Part shown: piece by piece, positions 17,583-63,134 of the stretch
How positions within the stretch are numbered: the first letter of the stretch is position 1
Layout of the letters: each line of letters opens with the position of its first letter
Virus record (IMG/VR): IMGVR_UViG_3300043029_000019
Strand: one strand, 5' to 3'
Origin: an uncultured virus (IMG/VR IMGVR_UViG_3300043029_000019)
Taxonomy: Duplodnaviria > Heunggongvirae > Uroviricota > Caudoviricetes
Length of the DNA stretch: 64,000 nt
Notes under the pieces: model-generated
The model's input: the letters and a program-made list of their open reading frames with translations, nothing else
Database searches by the model: none
What the model was told of the DNA's origin: nothing
Translations under genes and position numbers: made by a program

Positions 17583-18190
17583 GTTCTCTCGCTAACGTAG
17601 GAGGTTGATTGGTACGGTTCTGTTCGGTCGGTTTGCGCGTTCAGGGTCTTCATCCGCGCCATGCGGGCATCGTACACGCCTCTAAGAGCGTCAGCCATTT
17701 TGTAGCTTTTGGCGACGATCATAGCGAGGTCAACAGACATCCTTGCGGCGAAGGCCTGCACAAACGATGGTGAAAACTTCGATGGGTCCTCGACACTGGC
17801 AATATAGAGGATTTTTACCTCTTCCTCGTCTGTCAAAAGCTTTTCGCCCTCAACCTCCCACGTTTTCCCAAATGTCGCCACCTGCACACTCTGCGCTGTC
17901 GATTGGTCGAGCATGGCATATTCGTCGTCCTGCATTTCGAGCACTCGCAGGCAATCGGACGGCAAAGCGTAGGCATACAGGTAGCCGTATCCCGGGGTTT
18001 CATCAAGCCGCGCCAAAATCGCCCTGCGCTTGCAGAACGTCCAAGCGTGCGCCTCCTGAATCTCGTCTCGCAACAGGCTATATATGGCCTTACACGCTCT
18101 TCCTTCTGCGCTGGCATCATCCATGGTTGCAATTCTGCCGCCGCCCATCATGCCTAATGCTAGATTGCAAATTTGTACGTCACTGGCCAT
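17579..18190 (-). CDS. Tail tubular protein A (adaptor)
   Basis: ICNLAL...HAWTF...YALPSDCLRV. Confidence 0.88.
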   Translation of the reverse strand: MASDVQICNLALGMMGGGRIATMDDASAEGRACKAIYSLLRDEIQEAHAWTFCKRRAILARLDETPGYGYLYAYALPSDCLRVLEMQDDEYAMLDQSTAQSVQVATFGKTWEVEGEKLLTDEEEVKILYIASVEDPSKFSPSFVQAFAARMSVDLAMIVAKSYKMADALRGVYDARMARMKTLNAQTDRTEPYQSTSYVSERT

Positions 18191-18889: not shown

Positions 18890-19888
18890 TTAAATGCCGG
18901 ATTCGGTGTTCAGAATGGCGTCACAGCGTCGTACCGGGATGCCGTCGAACATGGTGACATGCTTGCCTGCTACCTGCTCCATGGTCAGCGTAGACGATGC
19001 CACTTTGTTCATGATCTGACGCCGCAGGAAACTTTTGACGGTGCGATTACAGTAGAAGGCAGGACGGCCCATGGACAGCGAGGGGATAATTTCCACAGCC
19101 TGGGTCATCAGGTCGATGAGGTCGGGGCCGGAAGAGGCGTTTTTAACCAGGTCTTCCTGGTCAATGTTGATACGGCACACATACCGCCAGTCCCGCACAG
19201 TCAAGCCGCAGTCCCAACGGTAATGGCTGCGGTAGGCTTCCATGCGCCCCCCGCTGCCGTCAACGTCCTCGATGGTAACCTGCCCCTTGTCCTCATGTTG
19301 CAGACCTGCCTTGGAGCCTTTGGGATAAATGCCGTGTATGGTGTTCGGGCCCCAAACGACAAGCCAGATAGAAGTGTTATCGGAGCCGTCAGGGGTGGCG
19401 GCAGAGGTCAGGATGTTGTCGCCGTTTTGTGCGCTCTGATCGTTGAACCGCGGGGAGAAGCCCGTAAAGGCTTCGGGTTCGGTGGACTCATTGCCGTAAA
19501 AGAGGGTGGAAGAAAACTCGTTATTCATCCCCTCGATGTGGGCGCGGTCCTCAGACAGCCGGAATGATGCGGTGTTCCCGTTCAGATCGGCAAGAGCCTT
19601 GTCAACTTCGGCATAAGCTTCGAGCATACCGCAGGTGTCGGTAATCTGCGCGGTGGTCGATTTTGTCGGCTGCACGCCACCGTACAGCTTACGCCAGGTC
19701 GGAGTCGGAAGACCGGTGCGGATGGTGGTCCGATGGCCGGTTGGGAGGTTGCCTTCAAGCCAGACCATATCCTGCAAAATTTCGTTGGTCTGGTTCAACA
19801 TTTCGGCAATAGTGTCAATTTTGCCGTTGGGGTCCAGCCGCTTGGTTATGTCAAGCAGCGTCGGGTGAGTAGTTGCAAGTGTGCTCAT
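18890..19888 (-). CDS. Major capsid protein (BPP-1-like)
   Basis: PTLLDITKRLDP...EGNLPTGHRTTIRTGLP...FRLSED...FDGIPVRRCDAI. Confidence 0.93.
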   Translation of the reverse strand: MSTLATTHPTLLDITKRLDPNGKIDTIAEMLNQTNEILQDMVWLEGNLPTGHRTTIRTGLPTPTWRKLYGGVQPTKSTTAQITDTCGMLEAYAEVDKALADLNGNTASFRLSEDRAHIEGMNNEFSSTLFYGNESTEPEAFTGFSPRFNDQSAQNGDNILTSAATPDGSDNTSIWLVVWGPNTIHGIYPKGSKAGLQHEDKGQVTIEDVDGSGGRMEAYRSHYRWDCGLTVRDWRYVCRINIDQEDLVKNASSGPDLIDLMTQAVEIIPSLSMGRPAFYCNRTVKSFLRRQIMNKVASSTLTMEQVAGKHVTMFDGIPVRRCDAILNTESGI

Positions 19889-31778: not shown

Positions 31779-34025
31779 TTATGCAATAAATGACATTTGC
31801 TCTGCGGTGTCGGCGTCGGCTTCTTTGAGATTCTTGACTGCCTGCCGCCAGTAACTTTCTTTAAGCTCGGCTCCGACAAACCTCCTACCCATTTTCAAGG
31901 ACTGATAGCCCTCAGATCCGATGCCGGTAAACGGGGAGAAAACCAAGTCGCCCGGGTTGGTCCACAATTGCAGTGCCCTCTCGATCACGTCCAGTTGCAG
32001 CGGGCATATATGCCGTTCGTCCTTGTCTTCTCTGGCGCTGCGTCTCTGCAGAGTGTTCGACGGGTTAATATCCATCCAGACCGGCGAGGCATACCGCTGC
32101 CACACGTCTATACTCAGGTTTTTGGTTTGCTGAAATGTCGATTGATCCCCGGCAAAGTGGGTCAATTCTCCCGTAACAGGCTCTGGATTTTCCCCTGGCT
32201 TCCTCATTACGACTAAATAATCCGGGACGCCTTGGCGACTCATGCAACTATCTTTTTTAAGTTGTTTGTGGAGTAATCCAAGTGCCTTTGTGCGTTGCAT
32301 GGCCGTTACCGGGTCCTTCCAAATAACCACTTCGCTGTGATAAATCCACCCGGCGTCCTGAAATGTTTTAATCAGCTGGCCGCGAAAATCCTTTATGCCG
32401 ATCACCCCGTCACGCGCCTTGGACGTCGGCAGATTCATACAGTGAAAGGCGCACAGTCTGCCGGGCTTGGTGATACGTAACAGTTCCGGCACTAGAAAAC
32501 AGAAGTGGTCGGCAAACTCTTGGTCATTCTTGCAATTCCCCATGTCCCTGTCGCTTGCCGAGTAGGTGTAGAGCGAGGAAAACGGCGGCGAAAAGATGGA
32601 AAAATCAATACTGTCGTCGTTAATCTCGCGGGCCACGTCCACGCAGTCCCCAAGAAATACTTTCCAGTTTTCTGACTCAGCCACGTCGCGGACATAATCG
32701 ACCTTTTGACGGACGGTGCCGTGGATATCATTGCCGTTCAAATCGGCCATGTGTTTAACCATTTCCGAAGCCATCAACTCCGTGTCAGCCTCTTTGCGTT
32801 CAATGTTTTTCACAACCGCCCCTTCCGTTTCTGCGGTCACGACATGGACTGTGACCTTGTTTTTCTGCCCGAACCGCCAGCACCTTCTAACAGCTTGATA
32901 AAACTGCTCATAAGAGTCCGACAAGCCTAGGAATATCATGGTGTTACAGTGCTGCCAGTTCATACCGAACCCGGCGATACTTGGTTTGCTGACCAAAACC
33001 CGGAACCTGCCGTCAGGAAAGCCAAGTAAAGACTGCTCCTTATGTTCCGGTTTGTCGGCCCCTTTAACCTCCACAGCACCGTCAATCAGGCTTTTTGCTG
33101 CGGCTGATTCGTCATTAAGGTTGCACCACACCAAGCAGGGCCCGTCCGTTTCGTTGGCGATTTGTGCGGCGAGTTTGGCGCGGTCGTCAATCGTCGCTTT
33201 GCGTTCCTGCTGCCGTTCTTGCAACGTCAAGGCTTCGACCGGGAACAGAAAGCCATCCGGAGCCTCATCCTTTTTGACGACGTGGTGCACAATTTCCATG
33301 TCCGGCAGCACAAACCCGCCATCGTCATAGCCCAGATCGGACGGCTTTCGGACCATCACCGCCCAGGAAGAAACCCATCGCCAGAAGTCGTCTGAAGCAT
33401 GGCCCTTGAGTCGCCATTTTTGCGTTTCCCCACCGTCATGGACAAAAAACATGGAGAGCATTTCAGTGCGGCTCATAGCCCCTAAGAACTCCGCATGGTT
33501 GCCTAATTCCATGTGGTCATTCGGTGCAGGGGTCGCTGTGCAAGCCAGACGGAAACTCGTGTTCCTGAACGACTCGATAATTTGGTTGCGGACTTTCCCC
33601 GTATAACTTTTAAGAATTGACGATTCATCCAGCACCACCCCGACAAACTCGCTCGGATCGAACTTGCTCAACATTTCATAGTTGGTTATAGTGACCCCCT
33701 GCCCAACCTGTTCTTGACTGCGGCAGTAACGCACCTCCACGCCAAACTTCTCACCTTCCCGGGCGGTTTGGCTGGATACGGCCAGAGGGGCCAGTATTAG
33801 TACATTGCCCCCCGTTTCTTGATGGATGACGCGGGACCATTCAAGCTGCATGGCGGTCTTGCCCATGCCGCAATCGGCAAACAAGGCTGCTCGGCCTCGT
33901 TTCAGGGCCCAACTCACAATGTCCTGCTGGAAGTCGAAAAGCATATCATTTAGCGGTGGCAGGCTAGATAGACCTGTTGGCCGATCAACAACGGACTTTT
34001 TGTGTAGGAAATTTTGATAGTTCAC
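31779..34025 (-). CDS. SF2 helicase fused to N4/N6 DNA methyltransferase
   Basis: ADCGMGKT, LDESS, TATP, QAVRRCWRFGQ, then SPPF and FSPFTGIGS; GTG start. Confidence 0.9.
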   Translation of the reverse strand: MNYQNFLHKKSVVDRPTGLSSLPPLNDMLFDFQQDIVSWALKRGRAALFADCGMGKTAMQLEWSRVIHQETGGNVLILAPLAVSSQTAREGEKFGVEVRYCRSQEQVGQGVTITNYEMLSKFDPSEFVGVVLDESSILKSYTGKVRNQIIESFRNTSFRLACTATPAPNDHMELGNHAEFLGAMSRTEMLSMFFVHDGGETQKWRLKGHASDDFWRWVSSWAVMVRKPSDLGYDDGGFVLPDMEIVHHVVKKDEAPDGFLFPVEALTLQERQQERKATIDDRAKLAAQIANETDGPCLVWCNLNDESAAAKSLIDGAVEVKGADKPEHKEQSLLGFPDGRFRVLVSKPSIAGFGMNWQHCNTMIFLGLSDSYEQFYQAVRRCWRFGQKNKVTVHVVTAETEGAVVKNIERKEADTELMASEMVKHMADLNGNDIHGTVRQKVDYVRDVAESENWKVFLGDCVDVAREINDDSIDFSIFSPPFSSLYTYSASDRDMGNCKNDQEFADHFCFLVPELLRITKPGRLCAFHCMNLPTSKARDGVIGIKDFRGQLIKTFQDAGWIYHSEVVIWKDPVTAMQRTKALGLLHKQLKKDSCMSRQGVPDYLVVMRKPGENPEPVTGELTHFAGDQSTFQQTKNLSIDVWQRYASPVWMDINPSNTLQRRSAREDKDERHICPLQLDVIERALQLWTNPGDLVFSPFTGIGSEGYQSLKMGRRFVGAELKESYWRQAVKNLKEADADTAEQMSFIA

Positions 34026-34041
34026 TTCTCCACCTCCTATC

Positions 34042-34503
34042 TCAAAACGGGATAGAGTCGGAATCATCAAACGGCGGCTCCTGATACCCACCGCCTGTTC
34101 CGCTTCCGTATTCGCTGCGTGAGGCACTTTCTTGTCGCTGCCCTTGCCATTGGTTGCGCTGGCCGTTGTCGTCGCTTGCGCGGCCTAGCATCTGCATTTG
34201 GTCGGCTACTATCTCGGTGGTGTAGCGCTTGTTACCGTCACGGTCTTCATAGCTGCGAGTTTGGATTTTGCCCTCGATATACACTTGGCGGCCCTTGCTC
34301 AGATACTTGCCGCAGATTTCTGCGATTTGCCGCCACGCGACGATGTTGTGCCACTCGGTTTTCTCCTGGCTGTTGCCGTCACGGTCTTTGTAGCGCTCCG
34401 TGGTAGCAAGCGAGAAATTGCAAACCGCTGTCCCTGATGCGGTGTAGCGAAGTTCGGGGTCTTTGCCTAAATTGCCAACGAGGATACATTTGTTTACCGC
34501 CAT
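34042..34503 (-). CDS. ssb: Single-stranded DNA-binding protein
   Basis: [18 protein letters not shown]...TEWH...DSIPF. Confidence 0.97.
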
Positions 34504-34538: not shown

Positions 34539-34946
34539 TTATGCAGCTTCGATAATGATTTCAGTTCGCGGCCTGTCACCGTAAATCTTCCGCGCTTCCA
34601 ACTCGAACACCTGGGAATCATCGCGCCAAGCCACCCCGTTAAGACAGTCCTTGGCAAACTTCACAAGATTGTCCAAGTCCGGCTTTTTCGTATGCTGTTG
34701 CGGGGCAGAAGGTTTCAGTTTTGCCGCATTCTTGCCCGTTCCAAAGTGGCCTTTAGGTCGCGGCATGGCAAATAGCATTTTCACTTTCAGCGGCCCTTGA
34801 AAAAGGTCTTTAACTTGCCCCTTTGCGAGCAACAACCATTTGCCTTCCTCGGTTTCCTGATCGTTGTATGTCTGCACAAATTGACCTCTCCGTGCAAAAC
34901 GAGGCCTTTTCTTCGCTATAGGTGCGCCTTCAATAACAATGTTCAT
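34539..34946 (-). CDS. rusA: Holliday junction resolvase
   Basis: KPDLDNLVKFAKDCLNGVAWRDDSQV. Confidence 0.92.
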   Translation of the reverse strand: MNIVIEGAPIAKKRPRFARRGQFVQTYNDQETEEGKWLLLAKGQVKDLFQGPLKVKMLFAMPRPKGHFGTGKNAAKLKPSAPQQHTKKPDLDNLVKFAKDCLNGVAWRDDSQVFELEARKIYGDRPRTEIIIEAA

Positions 34947-35119
34947 GCCGCCTCCTTAAACACTTCCTTGACTCGCTGCCACATGCGCTTGTATTTTCCA
35001 AGGCGCGTTTGTAGCTCCCCGATAATTTGCCGACACCGCGCAAGCTCAGCGTCTTTCGCGTCGATCATCATGCGCTGCTCGGATACCGCTATTTCCAGGG
35101 CCGTGCATCTGTCACACAT
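34943..35119 (-). CDS. 58-aa coiled-coil protein
   Basis: Hand-translated MCDRCTALEIAV...FKEAA; AAGGAG RBS; ATGA overlap with rusA. Confidence 0.65.
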   Translation of the reverse strand: MCDRCTALEIAVSEQRMMIDAKDAELARCRQIIGELQTRLGKYKRMWQRVKEVFKEAA

Positions 35120-35155
35120 ATGCGCTCCTTTAATTAATTTTCCATGTTTGACGGT

Positions 35156-35203
35156 CTAATATCTGGATACGTGGAAAATTTTCCACCTATCACTCTGTTG
35201 TAT
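35156..35203 (+). other. Array entry site (degenerate attC or attI equivalent)
   Basis: CTAAT...GATACGTGGAAAATTTTCCACCTATC-ACTCT-G|TTGTAT. Confidence 0.55.
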
Positions 35204-35206
35204 TGC

Positions 35207-35428
35207 TTAGTCGATCTCGGTGATAGTTATTTCCACTCTCCGGCCATGCACTGATTCTGTCGTGTATCCGCAGGCGTTTATTAGTTCGCCAATGGTCATC
35301 ACATCAAAATCGCTACTTACAAAGCATGTCCTTACGCCGCTACTTGTTTGAAGAGGGTTAAAGTGTCCTTCAATCTCTGATTGGAGCTTCTCTTGGCAGT
35401 CAGAAATATAAACGGTTTCTTCCACCAT
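35207..35428 (-). CDS. Cassette 1 ORF, 73 aa hypothetical
   Basis: AAGGAGG RBS; fills the cassette. Confidence 0.8.
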   Translation of the reverse strand: MVEETVYISDCQEKLQSEIEGHFNPLQTSSGVRTCFVSSDFDVMTIGELINACGYTTESVHGRRVEITITEID

Positions 35429-35452
35429 TTCCTCCTTTTATGACCCAGCGCA

Positions 35453-35541
35453 ATACAACCAGCACCTAAAGCGGATGGAATACGCTGGCTGCTAAATTCT
35501 CAAACGGTCACCCGCCACCGCTTAGGCTTATTCCGTTAGAG
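35453..35541 (+). repeat. attC site 1
   Basis: ATACAAC..CTAAAGCGG...CCGCTTAG..GTTAGAG. Confidence 0.85.
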
Positions 35542-35835
35542 CCCTAGCTTCCGGATGTTTTGGAGCACTATCCGTAGGGTCGATTTTACCGGCTTGTCCT
35601 TAAATGTGGTGATAGGCCACCCGCGCTTATCCTTCTTCCACCAGGGCAGCATTTGGCGTTTGGTGCGCTCCAGTTCTTTTTGCACTGTCAGGCGCGGGGC
35701 CGTCACAGCCTCCTTCAACTCCATAGCTTGCCGATGAGTTACGTTAATTTTGTAAAATGATAGCCAAGCATCTACAGCGGTTTGCTCTGGCCATGTGCTG
35801 CCGCAACATTGCTGTGTATCCATATTTTCCTCCAT
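35536..35835 (-). CDS. Cassette 2 ORF, hypothetical
   Basis: Stop codon is the TTA of the R' box; probable start MDTQQ at 35823 after GGAGG. Confidence 0.75.
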   Translation of the reverse strand: MEENMDTQQCCGSTWPEQTAVDAWLSFYKINVTHRQAMELKEAVTAPRLTVQKELERTKRQMLPWWKKDKRGWPITTFKDKPVKSTLRIVLQNIRKLGL

Positions 35836-35836
35836 G

Positions 35837-35908
35837 CTCTAACAAACGCATCGACCCTCGCCTTCTGCTGGACTCGCTACGCTCGCCGGTCATGCTTGAT
35901 CGTTATGT
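35837..35908 (+). repeat. attC site 2
   Basis: CTCTAAC..ATCGACC...GGTCAT..GTTATGT. Confidence 0.8.
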
Positions 35909-35909
35909 G

Positions 35910-36083
35910 TCATACCTTTCGGACATACTCGCCACTCGGAAGTTGTATATAACCGCCAACAGGCGCTTTCTCGTAGGCTTCGCACGTCCTGCATATGTTT
36001 GCAGGCTGCGAATAATGGATGTTTGGGTTACTGTCATCCTCGCAAAACTCGCGACCGCACTTTTTACAAACACATTTACGCAT
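35910..36083 (-). CDS. Cassette 3 ORF, 57-aa zinc finger
   Basis: MRKCVCKKCG...CRTC; AGGTGG RBS. Confidence 0.7.
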   Translation of the reverse strand: MRKCVCKKCGREFCEDDSNPNIHYSQPANICRTCEAYEKAPVGGYIQLPSGEYVRKV

Positions 36084-36105
36084 ATATTTGCCACCTAAAT
36101 TCTGC

Positions 36106-36208
36106 ACATAACCAGCCAGTCCAGCGGACGGAAGACCAGCGGCGGTTCTCGTTTAGGTCATCGCTGCGCCGTTATCGGCACACCGTCCGCTGACCATGTT
36201 CGTTATCT
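36106..36208 (+). repeat. attC site 3
   Basis: ACATAAC..TCCAGCGGACGG...CCGTCCGCTGA..GTTATCT. Confidence 0.9.
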
Positions 36209-36433
36209 TTACTCAGTATCCCATGGCCTATCATCCTTACTCTGGCAGATATAGAAATCAAAGTCGCAGTCTGTTCCTTCAGGAGGAACCAGTTTGTACC
36301 CTGGCGTACATTGTGAAAAATCGTTACCGCATGGCACGAGGTCAGTAATATCACACCCGCATTCAGCCCCATTTTGCAGCCCATCAAAGTCATTCTCGTC
36401 AAGATAGTTTTTTACTATTCTCAGGCAATCCAT
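36209..36433 (-). CDS. Cassette 4 ORF, 74-aa Cys-rich acidic protein
   Basis: FDGL...ECGCDITDLVPC...CTPGY; AGGAG RBS. Confidence 0.8.
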   Translation of the reverse strand: MDCLRIVKNYLDENDFDGLQNGAECGCDITDLVPCGNDFSQCTPGYKLVPPEGTDCDFDFYICQSKDDRPWDTE

Positions 36434-36455
36434 TTTGCGCTCCTATGAAGTTAAA

Positions 36456-36513
36456 AGATAACAAGTCCATAAACACGGACTCGTTTCACTCGCCGGTTAT
36501 GTCGGCGTTGGCT
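36456..36513 (+). repeat. attC site 4 (short type)
   Basis: AGATAAC..ATAAACACGGAC...CCGGTTAT..GTTGGCT. Confidence 0.85.
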
Positions 36514-36518
36514 GGCTA

Positions 36519-36716
36519 TCAAGTACGCCTTATCAGGTCATCTAATCGGTCAAGTTCTTCGCCGGTTCTGCGCGGCTTCATTGGCACTGTCGGGCCATAG
36601 TTTCTACGTTCAACAGCTCCGCAGTTTACGCATGTACCAAGGGGTGGCAGTTTTCCTCCCCAAAACTCAGGCACTTCTACAGCGCCGCCGCATTCGCTAC
36701 AGGTTCCTTTAATCAT
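36519..36716 (-). CDS. Cassette 5 ORF, 65-aa zinc ribbon
   Basis: CSECGG...CVNCG; GGAG RBS. Confidence 0.8.
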   Translation of the reverse strand: MIKGTCSECGGAVEVPEFWGGKLPPLGTCVNCGAVERRNYGPTVPMKPRRTGEELDRLDDLIRRT

Positions 36717-36739
36717 TTAGCTCTCCGATCCACCGCGCC

Positions 36740-36841
36740 TGCCAACCAGCCACCGCAGCGGAAGGAAGACACGGTTCAGGTTTGCGTTAAAATTCGTGGT
36801 TCGCGGTCGGCCTCGCGCCTCCGCTGGCCTCATCGTTGTTT
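36740..36841 (+). repeat. attC site 5
   Basis: TGCCAAC..CCGCAGCGGA...TCCGCTGG..GTTGTTT. Confidence 0.8.
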
Positions 36842-36843
36842 TG

Positions 36844-36969
36844 CTATTCGTTCTCGCAACTTTCGCAGACACACTCAGGGCAGAGAACAGCCCCGCATTT
36901 TTCACATTCATGAGCATCTTCTTCCGAGAAATCGCAGCCACAATTTTCACACAATGTCGTTATGTCCAT
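36844..36969 (-). CDS. Cassette 6 ORF, 41-aa Cys-rich protein
   Basis: Hand-translated MDITTLCENCGCDFSEEDAHECEKCGAVLCPECVCESCENE; GGAG RBS. Confidence 0.75.
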   Translation of the reverse strand: MDITTLCENCGCDFSEEDAHECEKCGAVLCPECVCESCENE

Positions 36970-36994
36970 TTTCGTCTCCGTAGGATGCAGCGCA

Positions 36995-37052
36995 AAACAA
37001 CCAGTCAATCAACACGGACTCGTAAACTCGCCGGTTATCGGCATCGTTATAT
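36995..37052 (+). repeat. attC site 6 (short type, near copy of site 4)
   Basis: AAACAAC..ATCAACACGGAC...CCGGTTAT..GTTATAT. Confidence 0.85.
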
Positions 37053-37409
37053 CCCCAGTAGCTCGCCAACTTTTCTCCAGTCCACATATGGCCTCTCGTG
37101 TTCACCAGGATCGCGCAGTAGTGGAATACCAAGTGCAGCATCGTCTATATACATCTGACCATAGGCTTTAGGCGAGTTTGTCCATTCTTTTTGTGTCGGA
37201 TTCTCGTTTACCCCATAAAGAGGTATGCCGTTTTCCTTAAACCAACTAACAGCGTCTGCAAGGTGGTCTCCATCCCGCATCGTAAATAAGATAATCTTGT
37301 TCCCCAGAACTGAGAGTTTTTTCAAATAAGGCGCAGCTCCAATATCCGCCCCCACATTTGGGTATTCATGTTTCACACACGTTCCGTCAAAATCTACACA
37401 TATTTCCAT
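37047..37409 (-). CDS. Cassette 7 ORF, small HAD-superfamily phosphatase
   Basis: ICVDFDGT, ILFTMR, SPK...YIDD. Confidence 0.88.
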   Translation of the reverse strand: MEICVDFDGTCVKHEYPNVGADIGAAPYLKKLSVLGNKIILFTMRDGDHLADAVSWFKENGIPLYGVNENPTQKEWTNSPKAYGQMYIDDAALGIPLLRDPGEHERPYVDWRKVGELLGI

Positions 37410-37431
37410 GTTTAAGTGTCCTTTAATTTTG

Positions 37432-37497
37432 ATATAACAAAACGTTAGAGTCGGATTGCGCAAACTGCCGCGCAACCGGTTACCCTTGTCGCTATAT
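37432..37497 (+). repeat. attC site 7 (chimeric/degenerate)
   Basis: ATATAAC start; right half shares CCGGTTACCCTTGTCG with site 8; R' reads GCTATAT. Confidence 0.6.
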
Positions 37498-37503
37498 TTT
37501 GCT

Positions 37504-37644
37504 TCAACGCCATGCTCTAGGAGAAAGCCCCAGCAATAAGAACCATCCGAATCCACCAGCAAAAAAAGTCCAGTGTAGGGCAGCGTAGATGCAGAAAAGT
37601 ATCAGCAAAACGTCAAATCCTGTCGCATATTCCCTCATGTTCAT
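37504..37644 (-). CDS. Cassette 8 ORF, 46-aa hydrophobic protein
   Basis: Hand-translated MNMREYATGFDVLLILFCIYAALHWTFF...; AAGGAG RBS. Confidence 0.55.
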   Translation of the reverse strand: MNMREYATGFDVLLILFCIYAALHWTFFAGGFGWFLLLGLSPRAWR

Positions 37645-37660
37645 ATCTCCTTAAAAAATC

Positions 37661-37726
37661 GGCTAACCAGCGGGTCAACGCGGACCGCCGAAACTGCCCG
37701 GCGTCCGGTTACCCTTGTCGTTGTCA
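37661..37726 (+). repeat. attC site 8
   Basis: GGCTAAC..GTCAACGCGGAC...GTCCGGTTAC..GTTGTCA. Confidence 0.85.
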
Positions 37727-38026
37727 ACTACACCGCCATATCCTGACCATACGTGCATGATTTGACGGCCTGTTGCTCTTCCGCATCCCTGCGTATACCC
37801 AACTCTTGTTTTTAAAAACAGCTCCGAAAGAGTTGCTATGAGCAGGCTGTACGCCAAGCAGGTCTAGCACCTCCCGCACTTCGTCCATCGTTACGGTGCC
37901 GTTTTTCTTGGCCAGGAGTTCGGCTATAGACCGTGCCGTGCCGACAAAATCACCTTCTTTGATTTCAATGGCGTCGAGGCCGTGCTGCTTGAGCTTCTCG
38001 CCTTTAAAGAGTCCCATCTGGTTCAT
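37724..38026 (-). CDS. Hypothetical phage early protein
   Basis: AAGGAGG RBS; SNRPSNHAR..RIW. Confidence 0.75.
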   Translation of the reverse strand: MNQMGLFKGEKLKQHGLDAIEIKEGDFVGTARSIAELLAKKNGTVTMDEVREVLDLLGVQPAHSNSFGAVFKNKSWVYAGMRKSNRPSNHARMVRIWRCS

Positions 38027-38035
38027 GATTCCTCC

Positions 38036-38233
38036 TTACTTGATAATCCCTCGCTCACGTTGCCGCAGGCGACGAGCCTTTTCCTTCGCACCTTGCGCCG
38101 GTCTGGTGGGATATTTGTAATTTCGCCCTGCAAGCCCTTTTGTTCTGTTGCTAAGTCCTGCGTAAACATCTTCCACTGTAGGGAATCCAAGGCTTTTAAA
38201 AACGCTTTGATAGTTCAGTTGATAGTTGTTCAC
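38036..38233 (-). CDS. Small basic protein
   Basis: QGAKEKARRLRQ; coupled start. Confidence 0.6.
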   Translation of the reverse strand: MNNYQLNYQSVFKSLGFPTVEDVYAGLSNRTKGLAGRNYKYPTRPAQGAKEKARRLRQRERGIIK

Positions 38234-38490
38234 ATTGCCTCCCTGAGTAATTCATTGGTTCGCTGCAAAAGCTCTTCTTCGCTTCCGTACTCCCTGCAAA
38301 ATGCTTTCTTCCCAAGCGTGTGTATGCCGTCCGCGCCTTGATGATGCCTATAGCAAAGCGGAATCGTCTTGCTGTGCTTTCGCGTCTCGCCGTACCTGCG
38401 GACATGATGCACGTTGCAAGGGGTTGCTCCGCATACAGCGCAAGGAAGAGAGGCCACGGCGTTAAGCCTGCGTTTATCTGCTACGGTCAT
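38230..38490 (-). CDS. Ref/DUF968-like HNH-type nuclease
   Basis: LPCAVCG...HH...TIPLCYRHHQG..GIH. Confidence 0.8.
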   Translation of the reverse strand: MTVADKRRLNAVASLPCAVCGATPCNVHHVRRYGETRKHSKTIPLCYRHHQGADGIHTLGKKAFCREYGSEEELLQRTNELLREAM

Positions 38491-38870
38491 ACCGCCACCC
38501 TCTCTTTCCACTCCACTCCATGCTCTGCGCCAAAACAGTAGATAAGCTCGATTAGCTCCGAAAACTCCGCCTTGCTCATTTTGGAAGTGTGCGCCCCTAT
38601 CACCACAAAGCCCCCGTCGATCCCAGGAACGGCACGTTGCTTTTTCAGCCCTGCGGTAAGCACGTCCTTCCACTCTTCCTTCGTGAGTTTCTGCCCGTAC
38701 CATTCGACTTGCGTTGACAATTCGGTGAGCAAGGGCCACAGCAAAGCGTTCTGATCGAGTGAGCGTGTCGGCGGCTTAATCTCAACCACCATCCCTTCCG
38801 GTGCGTTCTGTACTGCTGCCATGGCGCGTTGACGGGCGGTTTCGTGAGCGAGGGTAAAGCGTTGTTTCAC
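38487..38870 (-). CDS. ninB: NinB (Orf) recombination mediator
   Basis: TRSLDQNALLW...EEWKD...TSKMSKAEFSELIELI. Confidence 0.9.
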   Translation of the reverse strand: MKQRFTLAHETARQRAMAAVQNAPEGMVVEIKPPTRSLDQNALLWPLLTELSTQVEWYGQKLTKEEWKDVLTAGLKKQRAVPGIDGGFVVIGAHTSKMSKAEFSELIELIYCFGAEHGVEWKERVAV

Positions 38871-39036
38871 CGTTCCACCTCCATGCATCCCTCTATCCGC
38901 AACTCGGGCCACGCCTGTTCCGCTTGCTGCTTTGCGTGAGTCGCAGACATGGCAAAGACCCGCAGTTTTATCCCTTCGCTCATTTCAACTGCATAAAGTT
39001 CCATGTCTTCACAATTGTTTGTTGTGAGTACGTCAA

Positions 39037-41349: not shown

Positions 41350-41613
41350 CTATTTGCTGACTGCTTTCTCAAGACTCTCAACCCGCAACTTGAGACGGCT
41401 TAGTTCTTGTGCGCGTTCTTCCGGCAACCTTTCTTCAAGTTCCGCGATAGCATACTCAAAGGACTTATGCCCGACTGAATAAACCCCGTCTGCCGAGACT
41501 GAATACATGCTTGTGATGCTACCGTCAGACCGCGTGAAGAAAGATTCTTCCGCCCCGCAGTTTTTCGTCAGGCTCAACTCCATAACCTTTTCTATGGCTT
41601 GTCTGGTTTCCAT
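41350..41613 (-). CDS. Hypothetical protein
   Basis: GGAGG RBS before METRQ. Confidence 0.6.
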   Translation of the reverse strand: METRQAIEKVMELSLTKNCGAEESFFTRSDGSITSMYSVSADGVYSVGHKSFEYAIAELEERLPEERAQELSRLKLRVESLEKAVSK

Positions 41614-42074
41614 TGTCTCCTCCGATTCTCGCTGCCTCGTCCGGAAAGTAGCTGGCAAGGCAGCGGTCACATATTCCGTGGGTTTCTCCCTCCTGATTGT
41701 CGTCAGTAAACCCCATTACCGTTTTGCACCATGCACATCGGCGCGTCATCGGCGCGACTCCATCTGCTGTGCGTGTTGCGCCTCCATCTGAGCAATCCTG
41801 TCTTCTTTTTCCATGCATTCGTACAGGCTCCATATGCCTACTGCGTACAAAAAGATGATGCCGAGTATTGCTGGCCATGTTTTCATGCTTTCCTCCGCAT
41901 TAGTCGTTTTGCTTCGTCAATTCTCCCGGCGTCAAACAGCCGCTTTATTTCATGTACCCTGTCACCTGGGTGGAAAACTGCCGCTGATATCCGGTCAACT
42001 TTTGCCTTGAGTTCCGCAACGGTTTTTTCAAGCTGTGCCAAATCCATTGCTAAAATCCTTCTCGGTGATATCGT

Positions 42075-42236
42075 TTAACTAGCAAGCCGCCTCTTTTCTG
42101 CGGCGATAGCTCGTTTTAACAGTCTGTCGGTAAGGTCGCACAACCTCGTGTTGTGCCCCTTGCGCTGATGCTCCAATTGCAACTCTTTAAGATCGAGCCA
42201 CGAGTCGGAGCTAACATTGATAGGCTTCCGTTTCAT
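42075..42236 (-). CDS. Small regulator in the cro position (ribbon-helix-helix-like)
   Basis: AAGGAG RBS; MKRKPINVS then two helices; divergent from the repressor. Confidence 0.6.
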   Translation of the reverse strand: MKRKPINVSSDSWLDLKELQLEHQRKGHNTRLCDLTDRLLKRAIAAEKRRLAS

Positions 42237-42372
42237 GATGTTGCTCCTTTGTTGTTGGTAAATAATTTCCCCGTGTCCGCCACTTAGCCCAAACAGTTTA
42301 CGAGCGTGCAATAGGCGGGGATAGCGAGGTATTCGATTTTAAAAGAGCGAAATTTGTTCCCTGTTGAGTTCC

Positions 42373-42400
42373 AGTATAGTTAAAATATTTACCGAGTCAA
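42373..42400 (-). promoter_or_regulatory. Early lytic promoter, followed by boxA-like CGCTCTTTTAAA (42338-42349)
   Basis: TTGACT-N16-TATACT. Confidence 0.65.
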
Positions 42401-42482
42401 CAGAAAAATAGAGAAAATTTTTAGCTGTTTGCTCCTGCGAGAAAAATGTCAATGATTACAAAATGTTGCGACATTAAAAAAA

Positions 42483-42511
42483 TTGACATTAATCATTCGA
42501 CAAGGTAAAAA
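42483..42511 (+). promoter_or_regulatory. Repressor promoter giving a probable leaderless mRNA
   Basis: TTGACA-N17-TAAAAA, ATG 7 nt downstream, no SD. Confidence 0.55.
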
Positions 42512-42517
42512 ATAACT

Positions 42518-42901
42518 ATGGAAAAAATCATTGGGAAAAGAATACTTGAGGTGAGGAAGAGAATTTCCGACCTCAATCAATCGGATTTAGGCGCTCTCTT
42601 TGGCGTGAAAAACGTCGCCGTCTCACAATGGGAGAACGGCGAAACGATGCCAAGCGTTGAGGTGTTAGAAAAGGTCGCCGACATGGCTGGCGAGTCGCTG
42701 GACTGGCTTTTCGGGAGAGAGGACAAAACCATTTCAAACGAAGAGCGCAGGCTTTTGAGGTTTTTCCGAGGAACAAGCGAAGAAGGACAAGAAATAGTGC
42801 TGGAGACCGTAGAGGAAGGTGTTAAAGGGGTCGTCTGCCATCTAAGACAAAAAAGCAAGCCGCCCTCACGCAATGGTCAGAGCGGCTCCGTGAGATATTA
42901 G
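42518..42901 (+). CDS. XRE-family repressor (cI-like, no S24 peptidase domain)
   Basis: IGKRI...LNQSDLG..FGV...AVSQWENG..P...SLDWL. Confidence 0.9.
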   Translation: MEKIIGKRILEVRKRISDLNQSDLGALFGVKNVAVSQWENGETMPSVEVLEKVADMAGESLDWLFGREDKTISNEERRLLRFFRGTSEEGQEIVLETVEEGVKGVVCHLRQKSKPPSRNGQSGSVRY

Positions 42902-44937: not shown

Positions 44938-45528
44938 TCAGGAACCTTTCTGCGGTGTCAGCATCAGATCCTTATCCTTACTTCCCCTGGAACTACCGAA
45001 CTCGAACTGGTGGGCTGACTGCAGCCCTGATCCAAACTGGCCCGCCAAATACCCAAGCGGTCCGTTCATCACGCCCATAGCTGCCGATCCTTCGCCGGTA
45101 AGTGCCGTAATGCTGACGTACACCATGGCCGCGAGACAGCAAAGCAATCCAGCCACATCACCGATAATCATCAGATTGGCCCTCATATTACTGCTTCCGG
45201 AGGCCCGGATTTTTTCGTCACGTTCCCTGGCGTCCTGAATATCGGCGGTGTCGATTTTGCGGTGCTCGATGCCGGCATTGACCAACAGGCGTTTTTCTTC
45301 CAGAGCCAGTTCAGCCAGTTTGCCCTTATGCTTGATCTCGGCGGTCTTGAGCTTGACGAACGCCTCCGGGTTTTTGGCCAATTCAGCCTGGACGGCCTCC
45401 GGGCTTTCTTCGCATCCAAGCACGTTTGCTACCAGTTTTCCCGCCGCTGTTCCGACGGGACCACCAAGCAATCCCCCGATAACGGGTGCGGCCTTGCCTA
45501 TGACGCTGCCTATATCCTTCCAGGTCAT
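44938..45528 (-). CDS. Holin-like membrane protein
   Basis: MTWKDIG...APVIGGLLGGP...DIQDARER, two TM segments, FEFGSSRGSKDK. Confidence 0.75.
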   Translation of the reverse strand: MTWKDIGSVIGKAAPVIGGLLGGPVGTAAGKLVANVLGCEESPEAVQAELAKNPEAFVKLKTAEIKHKGKLAELALEEKRLLVNAGIEHRKIDTADIQDARERDEKIRASGSSNMRANLMIIGDVAGLLCCLAAMVYVSITALTGEGSAAMGVMNGPLGYLAGQFGSGLQSAHQFEFGSSRGSKDKDLMLTPQKGS

Positions 45529-46106
45529 GCCTTCCCTCCCCGTTCACGCTGCCATTTGATAGCACCGTCAGCGATCGCCCGCGCCAGAAGAGCCTGGTTC
45601 TCCTTAGTGCCAAGCCAAACAGCCTCTTCGGCATGAGTGATAAACCCCATTTCAACTAAGATCGCCGGGCCGAAAGTCCTGCGGCACATCCAGAGATTCT
45701 TTTCCCTGTCCTTGTCCCAAACCTGTTCCCCGTCAGTTATGTCATACCGGAGTCTGCGCATGGGAAAAGCGTTCTGGATAGCATTGATAACGTGATATGC
45801 AGCGCGGTCACTGGCCGTCTCGCCGATAGAAGTCCACACTTCAAAACCATGGGCACCAACATTTACGGCAGCGTTACAATGCAGGGATATGGTCAAATCC
45901 GGGGACAGGTGATGTTCGAGATTGGTGCGGCCGCGCAGTGAGACAAACTTATCTTCCCGTCGCGTCATCCATGTCTTGCCGCCCTGCTCTTTCAAGCAGG
46001 CAGCCAAGAGCGCAGCAACGGAAAGATTGATATCGCACTCGCGAAGACCTTGGGCCACAGCACCGGGATCCTGCCCGCCATGACCGGGATCGATAAGAAC
46101 ATTCAT
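45525..46106 (-). CDS. Endolysin, N-acetylmuramoyl-L-alanine amidase (Amidase_3)
   Basis: IDPGHGGQDPGA..E, ISLHCNA, PAILVEMGFI. Confidence 0.95.
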   Translation of the reverse strand: MNVLIDPGHGGQDPGAVAQGLRECDINLSVAALLAACLKEQGGKTWMTRREDKFVSLRGRTNLEHHLSPDLTISLHCNAAVNVGAHGFEVWTSIGETASDRAAYHVINAIQNAFPMRRLRYDITDGEQVWDKDREKNLWMCRRTFGPAILVEMGFITHAEEAVWLGTKENQALLARAIADGAIKWQRERGGKA

Positions 46107-46109
46107 GGT

Positions 46110-46340
46110 TTATCCTCCACCCTGTAATTTGGCTTTGAGTCCAGTCCACAATGCGCCTAGCAAGGCGGTGGCTAAAACCGTAAGCACGGCGTATCCGATC
46201 ACATTGGCAACGCGATCAAACTTTTTGAGCCATCGACGGACCAGCATGACTTCTTCTTCCGTAAACTGGCAGCCATGGCTTTTACTGGCCACGGCTTCGG
46301 CTATCGCCTGTACATCGGCTTCCGTAAGGGTTCGCTCCAT
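46110..46340 (-). CDS. Small single-TM lysis-region protein
   Basis: MERTLTEADVQAIAEAV, homologous to 3602..3829. Confidence 0.75.
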   Translation of the reverse strand: MERTLTEADVQAIAEAVASKSHGCQFTEEEVMLVRRWLKKFDRVANVIGYAVLTVLATALLGALWTGLKAKLQGGG

Positions 46341-46349
46341 CAGGTATCC

Positions 46350-46664
46350 TTATGCGCCGATCAACCCGCCGACTCTAAGGCTTCCTGCCCCGCCATCGCC
46401 ATAGACCGAGATCCCACCACCCCCGGGAACAAACTCGTAAAGCATTTCCCCAGGTTCAAGATAGATGCTTTTATTCGCGGGTCCGGCCTCACCACCAACC
46501 ACCCGGTAAAAACATGGCCCTGTCGTGCGCAGGCGCACATGCTTGCCGGCAAAACTTTTATCGACTACGGTTGCTTCGTTGGCCGAGAATGGAATAACCG
46601 TTTCCTGATAAGTGGTAGCGATCTGTGGCTTATCGCCCGGCCTCATGGGGGTAAGGACTGACAT
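46350..46664 (-). CDS. Small beta-rich virion protein (possible spike base)
   Basis: AAGGAG RBS; VRL.T...CFY...IYLEPGE..Y. Confidence 0.6.
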   Translation of the reverse strand: MSVLTPMRPGDKPQIATTYQETVIPFSANEATVVDKSFAGKHVRLRTTGPCFYRVVGGEAGPANKSIYLEPGEMLYEFVPGGGGISVYGDGGAGSLRVGGLIGA

Positions 46665-46816
46665 GCCTGCGCTCCTTTCGCACAAATAAAAAGCCCGGCG
46701 AGAATCTTTCGATTCGGGCCGGGCTGATGGGGCACCATAATAGGGTCCGTCAGAATCCGATTGAACATTTTTGTTTAGTCATAGTGGCATGAAGCGGTCC
46801 ACAGGTCAAGACCTGT

Positions 46817-46978
46817 TTATCCTGGCTGCAACAGGCTTAATGCCGCCACGAACACGACGCAACCAACCGGCACCATCCACAACAGGTGCAGGGGGGTGCG
46901 GCGACTGCTCCAACTCAGGTAGCAGGCAAAGAATAGCACGGCGAACAAGACCGCGTATTCAATGACGCTCAAGATCAT
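46817..46978 (-). CDS. 53-aa two-TM membrane protein
   Basis: Hand-translated MILSVIEYAVLFAVLFFACYLSW...VVFVAALSLLQPG, directly after the giant gene. Confidence 0.45.
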   Translation of the reverse strand: MILSVIEYAVLFAVLFFACYLSWSSRRTPLHLLWMVPVGCVVFVAALSLLQPG

Positions 46979-46986
46979 CTTCCAGG

Positions 46987-49900
46987 TCATCGGGTTACCG
47001 TCTGGTTATACTTGCGGTTAAACGCCATAGTCAGGCGCTGGATTTCTCGCTCGATACGTTCAATTCTATCCTTATACCGCTCCTTGTCCACGTTTTCCAG
47101 CTTTTCTTTACCTTGACGCAGCTTTGTAAGCCGCCGCCGCAGATGATCGGCGGTCCGTTTCAGGGCGATCTCGGGGTGTTCCTGCCGGTAGCGCATGGCA
47201 TCCCCTTTGCGGCCAGTCTCCATCATTTCTTTGAACAGACCATAATGCGCCGTCACCTTGTCCATGTGATTGTGCAAGTTCTGTCGGTCGTAGTAATCAC
47301 TCTTTTCCTGATAGACCTGGCGGGCAAACGGAACGCGCCTGATGGACAACTCTTCCCCTCTGGCCATAGCGGCCATGGCGTTGATGCTGTCGGCATAGAA
47401 CCGACCGGCACCTCCGGTTGCGAAATCCCAAAAGTGGTCCAACACTTCCGGCGATATGTCGACCACCCCAGGTTCAACACTGCTGCCACCCGTCAGTTCG
47501 TTAAGTTGTTTGGATATTGCCATGCTCAACGGCCGGACGCTCGACCAATACATCTCACTCTTCGGTTTCGGCGGGCCGAAAGACGGTTGATCCGGCATGA
47601 TCGGGGTACCCATGAAATTCTCGTTAGTTGCCACCTGCACGAACGGATCCATGATGGTCGGTGAGATCAGTTGCAACAGCGAATCATCACCACCCAGCGG
47701 GTTAAAGGCGTTCATGCCGGCATGGAACAGGCTCACCGCACCTTGGGCCGGGCTCTTGCCATGCTTGCCGCCACTGGTCAGGTAGGCGCGAACGTCGCTC
47801 ATGGTGTAACCCAAGGCTACGAACATATTGTACCCGTAGGGTAGTTTGACCTTGAAGGCGTCCCCCGATTCGTCACCGCGCATAAGCAACAAATTGGTGT
47901 GCTTGGTGTAATCGCTCACCTTGTCCCAGCGGTTTTCATCGTCGTCATCGTCGCCAGCCTGCAGCCGGTTTATTTCAGCCAGAGCAAAGGCGGTCAGAGT
48001 AATGCCTGCGCATATCTTCCTGGTGCGCTTGCTCTTGGCCAGGCTGGTGATAATCCGCGCCGATCCTTGAACGCCCGCATTGAAAAACAGATATAAAGCG
48101 TTGGCGGCCGGTCCGAGTTCCCCTTTGCGGTTGAAGTTGACGGTCAGGTTCTTGGCTAGGCTGGCGGCCTTGGCTTCACTCATGCCGTTCTCGATGGCGG
48201 TCTTAAAGGCCGACAGGCGCACCGCATTTTCCACCATGGTATTGTAATCGCCGATAAACTTGCCGACCTTCTGGACATATTTCCAGACCGTACCGAGCTT
48301 GCCGTCCTGCTCCCGTACCAGCTTCTGAATCTGTCTCTGCGTTTGATCGATGTTCTGCAGGTCCAGGTATCCCACCTGTCCGCCCGCTGCCTTGAACCGG
48401 GCGTACCACTTGGCCATGTCAGAATCGTTCGATCCGCGCAGGGCGTTACGAATCCCGCGCATAGATGCAGGAATGCCCTTTGCCACCTTGGCTGCGATCT
48501 TGGCACTTTCCTCCCCGGACAGGTTGATCATGGCCGTCTGAAAATCGCGCTCGAAGTTGGTGATGATGAATTCGGGATTCAGCGAGGTATTGACCATAGC
48601 CAGCACTCTATTCAACCAAGCCAAAGCGCGAATAGATTTGCCCTGGTCGGCTGCTCCAAGGTTTTTCATCACGCGGGCCAGATCCCTGTTTTCGATCTGA
48701 ATATAATGCACCTGGCCGTCGCGGGTTATCGGCAACACATTGTCAGCACGGATCCACTCAAAGTCGTCCACTTCGGCCACCTGCCGCGGCGGGGTAGCTT
48801 CCATCTCTGTACGAATCTCGGCGATCTCCTGTTGCAGCCTTTCGATTTCCGCGCCGTCCTCGGCCTTTTCAAGAGCGGCCTGCCTGCGCTGCAGCTTCCC
48901 CTTTAAGGCGGTAAAGGCCGGATTCTTGGCCAGCACCTGACGGGTCGGCAGATTGTCCCTGGTGCGTACCGTCCATAGCGACGGATCGGGGTTTTCTTCC
49001 ACCATCTGCAAGAAAGCCTTACCGACCTTCGCCCGTTCGGCCCGCACGATGGTATCGGCCACCTGGGCGGCCAGATGCGCCAGAATGTTCTCGGCTTCGC
49101 TGCGGCGTCCAAGCGCGGCCCTGGTGCCGGACTTGGTGACCGCAAACCCGCGTCCGATGCTGCGGCCGTGGCCTTCGTCCAATCCATCCGGCGCACCTTT
49201 GAGCGGCACATAGAAGTTGAACTGTTCCCAAGCGTCCAGCCGTTCCTGCTCTTCCAATCCTTCCTCGCGAATAATACGGCGCTGCATTTCGGCCATGCTC
49301 CAGACCTTTTGCGCCAAATTGTGCAGCACCCGCAATTTACCAGCCTTGCGGAACCCGTCGATAATCTTGGAAGCCTCGGCATCGGTCATGCCGGATCCAC
49401 CTTCCTCGAATTCCGGATTGATCTTCTGAATGTAGGCATTGCGCTCCGGGACATGCCTGGCGTACAGATACTGTTCCAGTTCATCAAGAGAAACCGGCGC
49501 TGCTTTGATTTCTTCCATCAGCGGTTCGATCTGTTCGGCCTCGAACTTGTCCAGACGATCCTTGGCAATGCCGTGATACAGTTCCTCGGTCAGATACGGA
49601 TTGTTGTCCTCGCGTTCTTGCCAGTCGCGTTTCTTCAACGCCTGCTGGGTGCGCTTGAGCGGCAGGAACTTGTCCTGGAACTTCATGCGCAGATAATCGA
49701 GGCGGGTGCCTATGGCCTCTTTGCCACGATCGATCCGGCTGGCTCGTGGAGTCTGTGCGGTTGCCGCGGCGGCGCGGGAGAACTTTATGGATTGTTCAGG
49801 TTTTTCGGACAACTCGCGTCTGCGGTTTTGGTATGCATCCTTTGCGGCTTCGATAAGTTCGGTATCGGATATGTCGTCTCGGACACCCTGCTGACCGTAG

Positions 49901-60621: not shown

Positions 60622-60639
60622 GGTTGAGCTGTCCTTCCA

Positions 60640-61995: not shown

Positions 61996-62009
61996 AGTTA
62001 CCCCCCTCT

Positions 62010-63133: not shown

Positions 63134-63134
63134 G

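Follow-up and report, generated by a model that had tools for sequence, protein, structure and literature searches.

A probable integron-type cassette array with reversed reading frames and no integrase of its own in the early operon of an uncultured phage

Integrons are usually seen as bacterial devices and, lately, as stores of anti-phage defence genes. Parts of integrons have also been reported in phages: the survey by Qi et al. 2023 (PMC9892861) gives three complete integrons, one In0 and 17 CALINs (attC clusters without an integron integrase) in 10,705 phage genomes. The complete integrons are described there as fragments captured from host integrons, as class 1 integrons carried by P1 or as belonging to a cryptic prophage, and five of six tested phage attC sites were recombined by IntI1. 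This was the only paper on integron parts in phages found by our literature search, the coverage of which left out most subscription journals. Here, we describe an array of cassettes at positions 35197–37722 of a 64-kb stretch of phage DNA from an uncultured virus (IMG/VR record IMGVR_UViG_3300043029_000019), the whole of which is hereafter called the window. A preliminary description of the locus took integrons to be rare in phages and missed the 2023 report. Like the phage CALINs in that report, such as that of Tetrasphaera phage TJE1, the locus comprises an attC array and single-ORF cassettes (ORF, open reading frame) without intI; methyltransferase cargo, which we find in arrays related to this one, is noted there too. 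The window differs from TJE1 in its longer array (eight cassettes) and in having near-identical cassettes in other phages and samples. We consider it very likely that the locus is a genuine integron-type array without its own integrase, a CALIN, the cassettes of which are probably mobilized by an integron integrase (IntI) acting in trans. What departs from the canonical cassette is the orientation of the ORFs; the sites themselves are genuine attC.

In a canonical gene cassette, the attC top strand carries the ORF, and attC follows on the 3' side, an arrangement that is typical and has known exceptions; the ends of attC follow the consensus formulae RYYYAAC (R'') and GTTRRRY (R'). The aadA1 cassette of plasmid R100 (Tn21), a mobile class 1 integron cassette, has an attC that reads TGTCTAAC-AATTC-GTT-C-AAGCCGAC...GCGGCTTAAC-TCAAGC-GTTAGAT, that is, RYYYAAC, a 5-nt spacer, an L'' arm with a bulged C after 3 bp, L', a spacer of ~6 nt and GTTRRRY. 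The last site of the window array, E9 (GGCTAAC-CAGCG-GGT-C-AAC-G-CGGAC...GTCCGGTTACC-CTTGTC-GTTGTCA), has the same layout, and its bottom-strand minimum-energy fold is a bulged hairpin. All eight attC-type sites that bound the cassettes (E2–E9) read on the plus strand as RYYYAAC, a 5-nt spacer, L'' with 1–3 extra bases, a loop of 7–60 nt, L', a 5–8-nt spacer and GTTRRRY, with AAC in eight of eight sites and GTT in seven; E8 has GCT. Without exception, the extra bases are in the plus-strand 5' arm; as the first bulge, E3, E4, E7 and E9 have C, whereas E2 and E5 have A. One minus-strand ORF with a Shine–Dalgarno sequence is present in every one of the eight units, the lengths of which were measured from G|TT to G|TT (Table 1), and no sigma-70-like site was found on the minus strand within the array. 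The preliminary description, which had proposed eight attC-like sites separating promoterless single-ORF units, with one extra base in L'', thus holds for the sites, for the lack of promoters and for the units (211–445 bp); the extra bases number one to three, and the description overlooked that the ORFs run antisense to the attC top strand. A boundary hairpin, E1, closes the low-coordinate end of the array, with a bottom-strand folding z-score of −3.5.

The likeness to attC was evaluated with a covariance model, R1, made from the eight window sites and four sites on viral contigs in the window plus-strand reading, with 11 hand-assigned pairs. R1 scores the window sites at 38.5–60.8 bits on the plus strand and at no more than 8.3 bits on the minus strand, with a single marginal match elsewhere in the 64 kb (14.6 bits, E 0.83). 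In 50 kb of plasmid R100, searched on both strands, it matches the aadA1 attC (28.2 bits, E 2e-4; sense strand of aadA1) and nothing else, and it detects one of the published TJE1 sites (23.9 bits). In a structural alignment of 63 sites from viral and bacterial loci (A4), which was fitted to R1 and so leans towards structure, 97.7% of paired cells can pair, compared with 24–38% when the partners are slid; compensatory changes occur in 7 of the 11 pairs, and the covariation score of 0.404 (0.092 in shuffles) was reached in none of 500 shuffles. The consensus over these sites is (G/A)(C/G)(A/C)T-AAC ... C-GTT-(A/G), and 48 of the 63 have C as their first bulged base, corresponding to G on the bottom strand. 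A scan of bacterial genomes for the attC loop motif returned at least 120 loci, mostly chance coding matches; attC sites supported by the model were present in 6 of the 80 loci fetched, from several proteobacterial and Desulfobacterota genomes.

The ends of the units carry the imprint expected of former circles. Comparison of the seven bases after each GTT with the reverse complement of the seven before the next AAC gives 7, 5, 5, 6, 6, 7, 5 and 2 matches, a total of 43 of 56 positions; permuted pairings within the window alone average 23.1 (sd 4.4) and reach 43 in 12 of 200,000 permutations (p ~6e-5). Between R' and R'' of the same site, 21 of 56 positions match in the window. Thus, seven of the eight units carry the end-complementarity signature, as the preliminary description had claimed, the ends of cassette 8 being non-complementary (2/7). 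Across the window and three other viral arrays, pairs from the same cassette average 5.5 matches of seven (n=20), pairs from the same site 2.96 (n=24) and other pairs 2.77 (n=106). End complementarity and the points at which homology around a shared cassette ends both place the crossover at G|TT, with hybrid R' boxes.

That shared cassette came to light through the loop motif common to E3, E5 and E7, which retrieved nine viral contigs, two of them chance coding matches. The block around cassette 6 (36834–37049) is 99.5% identical over 216–217 bp in the loci L001, L006 and L007, of which L001 and L007 belong to one phage (G004) and L006 to another (G003). On both sides the homology ends at GTT, with flanks that are unrelated or 70–80% identical, so that cassette borders at G|TT, on which the preliminary description had made its reading depend, are borne out by comparison with other phages. 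The shared block has E7 and not E6; the attC that travels with the c6 ORF is therefore the one on its higher-coordinate side, as expected if the top strand is plus. G004, a 44.5-kb record rated complete, encodes structural proteins 94–100% identical to those of the window and has its array at the same place, with the right flank shared; at the left junction, homology with the window (79.6%) ends at the GTT of E1. Only one of the eight cassette ORFs, c6, is common to the two phages. G003 and a further phage, G002, have nothing else in common with the window, and in G003 cassette 6 lies directly at the attI site of an IntI gene.

Cassette content also varies among other samples. Contigs from four other runs (assemblies, not reads), compared with the region, break at cassette borders; uncovered parts, differences in contig depth and loose ends were left out of the evidence. 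Five of the nine joints observed are exact sums of cassette lengths at GTT sites: skips of 338 bp (cassette 1; X4, shorter side 24 bases), 367 bp (cassette 2; X15, from 35533 to 35901, shorter side 255 bases), 1638 bp (cassettes 1–5) and 1956 bp (cassettes 2–7), and a return of 1005 bp (338+367+300), by which cassette 1 begins where cassette 3 ends (X9, shorter side 166 bases). At E1, joints begin at 35196–35199. These joints and the single cassette ORF shared with G004 bear out the gain, loss and reordering suggested earlier, and the contigs and the other phages agree on cassette borders at G|TT.

As a separate observation, the X4 contig departs from the window inside E8 (37488) and continues like the attI of IntI-bearing phages (GTTAAC...CCAACCGGCA). 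This may be an attC–attI junction; it could not be parsed and was not used as evidence.

Turning to the orientation of the genes, the attC top strand is the plus strand of the window and all eight ORFs lie on the minus strand, so that each attC belongs to the lower-coordinate ORF and lies 5' of it in transcription. The window ORFs run in the direction of the phage operon; in the IntI-bearing phages, the cassette ORFs run in the direction of intI. Strands were called from ORFs bounded by Shine–Dalgarno sequences together with Pfam support, in place of longest-ORF calls, which were too noisy in GC-rich loci. By these calls, six of seven window intervals are antisense and one is unclear; over all viral arrays, 21 intervals are antisense, 3 sense and 16 unclear, and in the bacterial arrays L098, L100 and L102 none is antisense, two are sense and three unclear. 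It is thus the genes that are flipped, within a canonical recombination geometry, and they are transcribed from the distal end of the array in the direction of attI and then, where present, intI.

This sets the locus apart from each of the described arrangements. In R100, the attC top strand carries the ORF, attC is 3' of it and intI is divergent, whereas the window ORFs are on the bottom strand; the IntI-bearing phages differ from R100 further in that intI is co-directional with the cassette ORFs, its start codon lying ~45 bp from the crossover point. In integrons of the Treponema denticola type, it is intI itself that is inverted relative to attI and the cassettes, so that intI and the cassette genes share one direction. 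In the phage loci, by contrast, intI stands in the canonical relation to attC (5' end by the array, top strand opposite), and it is the cassette ORFs that are flipped. Sedentary chromosomal integrons resemble the window array in their small cassettes of unknown function and in attC sites that are related within an array; however, the ORFs of the fetched loci L098 and L102 are sense, whereas the window array lies in a phage operon with the attC bottom strand as the sense strand. The attC bottom strands are on the template of the leading strand in 25 of 30 bacterial arrays of the sedentary kind, according to PMC5371416. In TJE1, the site found by R1 is on the orf3 strand just after orf3, in the canonical sense, whereas the window ORFs are all antisense.

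The minus-strand reading of the ORFs is supported by c7, which has PHROG and HAD-phosphatase matches, and by the zinc-ribbon-like c3, c5 and c6. The matches of c7 are to phrog_1238 (E 6e-30) and PDB 2obb_A (E 6.5e-14), and to NF046079 with 77 bits, under that family's cut-off of 165. Homologues of c7 (50–62% identity) in seven viral contigs have no attC matches nearby (R1, E of 1 or less), and c7 is therefore a phage gene of the ordinary kind, carried here on a cassette. The IntI-linked array of L089 includes, on the intI strand, a weak homologue of c4 (34% identity, E 3e-5). Pfam supports five of the 22 candidate cassette ORFs taken from either strand of IntI loci, each of the five in the orientation of intI: an Rv2179c-like exonuclease, Lar, an N6_N4 methylase, Dam and DUF7336 (sub-threshold). 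Because of the methyltransferase and Lar cassettes in these sister arrays, the cargo probably serves host takeover or anti-defence, a function assigned by analogy.

A cluster of at least two attC sites without a nearby integrase is classed as a CALIN; here, eight plus-strand sites lie within 2.3 kb, there is no intI in the 64 kb, and the intI and attI that a complete integron has beside its array are missing from the window. A tblastn search of the window with two phage IntIs and IntI1 detected no intI homologue, in agreement with the preliminary description; one significant match was an artefact of the cassette-derived N-terminal extension of a query, and other matches had E of at least 0.4. 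No integrase family was found among the 56 window ORFs scanned, and the complete relative G004 has no intI either. E1 is unlike the attI of the IntI-bearing phages.

Integron integrases are present in other phages. Two of five viral records encode proteins scoring 398.2 (G003, L006) and 371.8 bits (G002, L003) against TIGR02249, the cut-off of which is 265. These are 43–45% identical to IntI1 over their full length, and the alignment with IntI1 spans the segment LPxALERKYP...W.W..VF, which we take to be the IntI-specific insertion. Both records are phages: G003 has terminase, portal, primase, clamp and a reverse transcriptase of a diversity-generating retroelement (DGR), and in G002 there are direct terminal repeats together with a tape measure protein and head genes. 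The intI start codon of G003 is preceded, ~45 bp upstream, by the crossover point, with the window's cassette 6 beyond that point; comparison of G003 with L021 and L022 shows a conserved attI that begins exactly at the junction AAC, with different cassettes beyond. A wider scan took in 190 IMG/VR stretches with IntI relatives, of which 80 were kept. All 54 IntI ORFs tested pass the cut-off (one is IntI1 itself, and three with internal stops were excluded), and 49 of 51 R1 matches in the 80 IntI-bearing viral loci lie upstream of intI on the opposite strand. This canonical intI–attC geometry independently fixes which strand is the top strand. The next large co-oriented ORF downstream of intI (n=36, some loci being one phage sampled twice) is a large terminase in 16 cases, a portal in two and a tail sheath in one; the others are primases, a DnaB-like helicase, methylases, integrases, a ParB-like protein and ORFs without functional match. 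A place with intI next to the large terminase gene seems to be one that integrons occupy repeatedly in phage genomes.

Some further features of the IntI-bearing phages may be recorded here. In many IMG/VR contigs of the set made up of L018 (G003; 5839–7011) and loci L020–L064, a bona fide intI is directly upstream of, and co-oriented with, the large terminase gene. The G003 reverse transcriptase is of the DGR type (L228:6548–7648; phrog_1423, E 7e-102), so that two different diversification devices, IntI and this enzyme, occur in one genome. G002 has serine and tyrosine integrases besides IntI within ~5 kb (L225:14781–16403, 17014–18033 and 19181–19840). In-frame stops occur in the intI of L021 and L022 (93% identical to that of G003) and of L071; hence, some phage integrons may be decaying towards CALINs.

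Together, these data suggest how the array may have formed and how it may be used. Each unit would be a former circular cassette consisting of TT, an opposite-strand ORF and R''-L''-loop-L'-G (plus strand), inserted by an IntI that cut between the G and TT of the R' box. Since they are antisense to the attC top strand, the ORFs are read by the phage's own leftward transcription; expression would be by read-through from a phage early promoter, with each ORF using its own ribosome-binding site and with no integron Pc promoter. An IntI supplied in trans would recombine the folded bottom strands, so that cassettes are gained, lost and reordered: integration may occur between attC sites or at E1, and excision followed by re-insertion would reorder the array. 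That IntI is the enzyme acting on these sites, and which IntI it is, are judged from sequence. As its source, a co-resident phage with IntI at the promoter-distal end of a like array, for example G003, is the most likely; a host integron is the alternative. The preliminary description had invoked a host or helper integrase; IntI-bearing phages have now been found, one with cassette 6 at its attI, which makes them a concrete candidate for the helper. E1 may be the seeding site, of the attG type; insertion of cassettes by IntI at genomic sites other than att (attG) is reported in 10.1101/2022.09.11.507474. Possibly, the flipped ORFs matter for recombination itself: with the bottom strand as the sense strand, transcription would leave it unpaired, and if the genes are co-oriented with replication, it would also be the lagging-strand template, a position that favours attC folding and recombination according to PMC5371416. 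This last suggestion is speculative.

Several observations weigh against reading the locus as an array on which IntI acts. R1 derives from the same sites that it scores, and A4 was fitted to R1. Folding z-scores run from −1.2 to −4.1, with one site at +0.1, and several minimum-energy folds differ from the attC fold; the bottom-strand folding suggested in the preliminary description as a check therefore gave a divided answer, with extra bases consistently in one arm and several folds that are not attC-like. R1 does not detect E1. The strand call is unclear for 19 of 45 intervals, and three viral intervals are sense. Three of the five fitting joints have sides of 24–28 bases at 92% likeness and were flagged unreliable, four of the nine joints do not equal cassette sums, and all the read evidence consists of assembled contigs, from which recombination itself is deduced. 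The GCT of E8, the non-complementary ends of cassette 8 and the lack of IntI in both the window and its complete relative also count here. The unremarkable folding energies at several sites, the lack of any relevant family in Rfam at permissive thresholds and two terminator-like matches over E5 and E9 on the minus strand could suggest intergenic hairpins of another kind that resemble attC by chance, for instance terminators, REP-like repeats or sites used by a different recombinase. We regard this as scarcely credible and already largely refuted: the R1 match to the aadA1 attC is strand-specific, the geometry relative to IntI genes is fixed (49/51), the paired positions covary and end complementarity is unit-specific. 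A terminator or promoter role for the sites is set aside because terminator-like matches are no commoner than in shuffles (9 versus 5.9, sd 2.0).

That the array is instead a fragment of a sedentary chromosomal integron of the host, picked up by a prophage as in Vibrio anguillarum phages, follows a route documented for temperate phages in PMC9892861, and the attC sites with the same loop motif in 6 of 80 fetched bacterial loci would fit such an origin. It is nonetheless very improbable, as the eight ORFs are antisense and run along the phage operon whereas the two callable bacterial intervals (L098 and L102) are sense; moreover, phage genes flank the array, which occupies the same place in G004, c7 is a member of a family of phage proteins and no bacterial flank occurs in the 64 kb. 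A different objection concerns time: the cassettes may have been inserted by IntI in the past and now be static, relatives differing by homologous or illegitimate recombination between similar attC sites. Such a fossil array would need no intI in the window or G004, would explain why the R' of E8 has mutated and why cassette 8 has lost its end complementarity, and could draw on the 20–30-nt motifs shared by E5, E7, E8 and E9, which might support homologous exchange. We consider this unlikely, since cassette 6 is 99.5% identical in phages otherwise unlike the window, the borders fall within 3–5 shared bases at GTT, outside the longer shared L-box motifs, and the hybrid R' pattern is intact in seven of eight units. 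An array that IntI mobilizes in trans thus remains our preferred reading of the locus.

Beyond the window itself, we lean slightly towards the existence of a phage-native form of integron together with integrase-less client phages, like that of the window, which draw on a common pool of small cassettes. In such a form, an accessory operon would end with the gene for IntI, in many cases immediately upstream of the large terminase gene; the last cassette and the intI start codon would be separated by a compact attI of ~45 bp; and every ORF would be antisense to attC. With all ORFs antisense, expression would therefore be by phage read-through, and the recombinogenic bottom strands would be on the sense strand, which is non-template and probably the lagging-strand template. 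The pool, which in sister arrays includes methyltransferases, Lar-like proteins, nucleases and zinc-ribbon proteins, could move between unrelated phages during co-infection or lysogeny. Antisense cassettes, an arrangement with intI last and next to the terminase, and near-identical cassettes across unrelated phages were not found in the literature covered, which left out most subscription journals.

Exchange of small accessory genes in mosaic phage genomes is mostly ascribed to homologous or illegitimate recombination. Lambdoid accessory regions, namely the nin region and morons, comprise small non-essential early genes that vary among relatives, and they have the same position as the array, between recombination/replication genes and RusA. 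Unlike those regions, the array varies cassette by cassette at defined G|TT points and not by homologous or illegitimate recombination; here, the unit of exchange and its borders are explicit, the G|TT cassettes differing between near-identical phages and being shared between unrelated ones. A mirror-image phage version of the integron, with methyltransferase and Lar-type cargo, would give the opposing party in the arms race the same device. The flipped ORFs are a clean, testable departure that bears on the origin of cassettes and on the control of recombination by strand exposure.

Table 1. Parts of the cassette array and adjoining backbone genes (window coordinates; strand of ORFs in parentheses; R1 scores in bits)
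Feature	Position	Strand	Content
Backbone genes downstream in transcription	34539..35119	-	RusA (34539–34946) and 58-aa coiled-coil ORF (34943–35119)
E1 boundary hairpin	35146..35204	+	R''-like GTCTAAT, 5-nt spacer, 13-bp arms (one mismatch), 5-nt spacer, R' GTTGTAT; GTT at 35197–35199
Cassette 1 (338 bp)	35198..35535	+	ORF c1 35207–35428 (-), 73 aa; attC E2
attC E2	35453..35541	+	R'' ATACAAC, R' GTTAGAG; R1 38.5
Cassette 2 (367 bp)	35536..35902	+	ORF c2 35536–35835 (-), 99 aa, stop TAA is the TTA of R'; attC E3
attC E3	35837..35908	+	CAT-C-GACC / GGTCATG; R1 60.8
Cassette 3 (300 bp)	35903..36202	+	ORF c3 35910–36107 (-), 65 aa, CxxC zinc-ribbon-like; attC E4
attC E4	36106..36208	+	103 nt, long variable loop; R1 43.5
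Cassette 4 (305 bp)	36203..36507	+	ORF c4 36209–36433 (-), 74 aa, acidic, Cys-rich; attC E5
attC E5	36456..36513	+	CAT-A-AAC-A-CGG / CCGGTTATG; R1 54.9
Cassette 5 (328 bp)	36508..36835	+	ORF c5 36519–36716 (-), 65 aa, zinc-ribbon-like; attC E6
attC E6	36740..36841	+	102 nt; R1 39.7
Cassette 6 (211 bp)	36836..37046	+	ORF c6 36844–36972 (-), 42 aa, four CxxC, zinc-ribbon-like; attC E7
attC E7	36995..37052	+	R1 57.3
Cassette 7 (445 bp)	37047..37491	+	ORF c7 37047–37412 (-), 121 aa, HAD-type phosphatase-like; attC E8
attC E8	37432..37497	+	Degenerate R' (GCTATAT); R1 43.4
Cassette 8 (229 bp)	37492..37720	+	ORF c8 37504–37644 (-), 46 aa, hydrophobic; attC E9
attC E9	37661..37726	+	GGT-C-AAC-G-CGGAC / GTCCGGTTACC; last site of array; R1 51.2
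Backbone genes upstream in transcription	37724..38912	-	NinB (38487–38912), Ref/HNH-like nuclease (38230–38739), 65-aa ORF, 100-aa ORF

The phage of the window is a temperate-type podophage, and the array is embedded in its early recombination/replication operon. Nearly all genes lie on the minus strand, and an HTH repressor at 42518 is divergent; the window encodes a T7-like set of tail, portal, capsid and terminase proteins, a giant protein resembling DarB and an amidase. In the early operon, the order is Erf, NinB, Ref/HNH-like nuclease, array, RusA, SSB, SNF2–methylase fusion, replication initiator and DnaB. From 37939 onward, the upstream backbone of the window and that of G004 have 97–100% amino acid identity. 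Relatives of the portal protein among known phages of Proteobacteria are all at or below 42% identity. A megablast search of the array against 50,697 phage records gave no match, and the nearest virus record compared, G001, has no match to the array region.

Other features of the window lie outside the array. The SNF2-type helicase is fused with an N6/N4 DNA methyltransferase in a single 782-aa ORF (31779–34127, minus strand), 80% identical in G004. A segment of ~19 kb (44938–63527), which includes the 4544-aa DarB-like antirestriction/methylase–helicase protein (46987–60621) and the amidase endolysin, is missing from the otherwise collinear G004. Finally, a transposase-like ORF (phrog_506, E 7e-148) lies amid the tail genes (11375–12508, minus strand); the element has moved within the lineage, as a 92%-identical copy in G004 lies elsewhere and on the other strand (G004 41547–42677).

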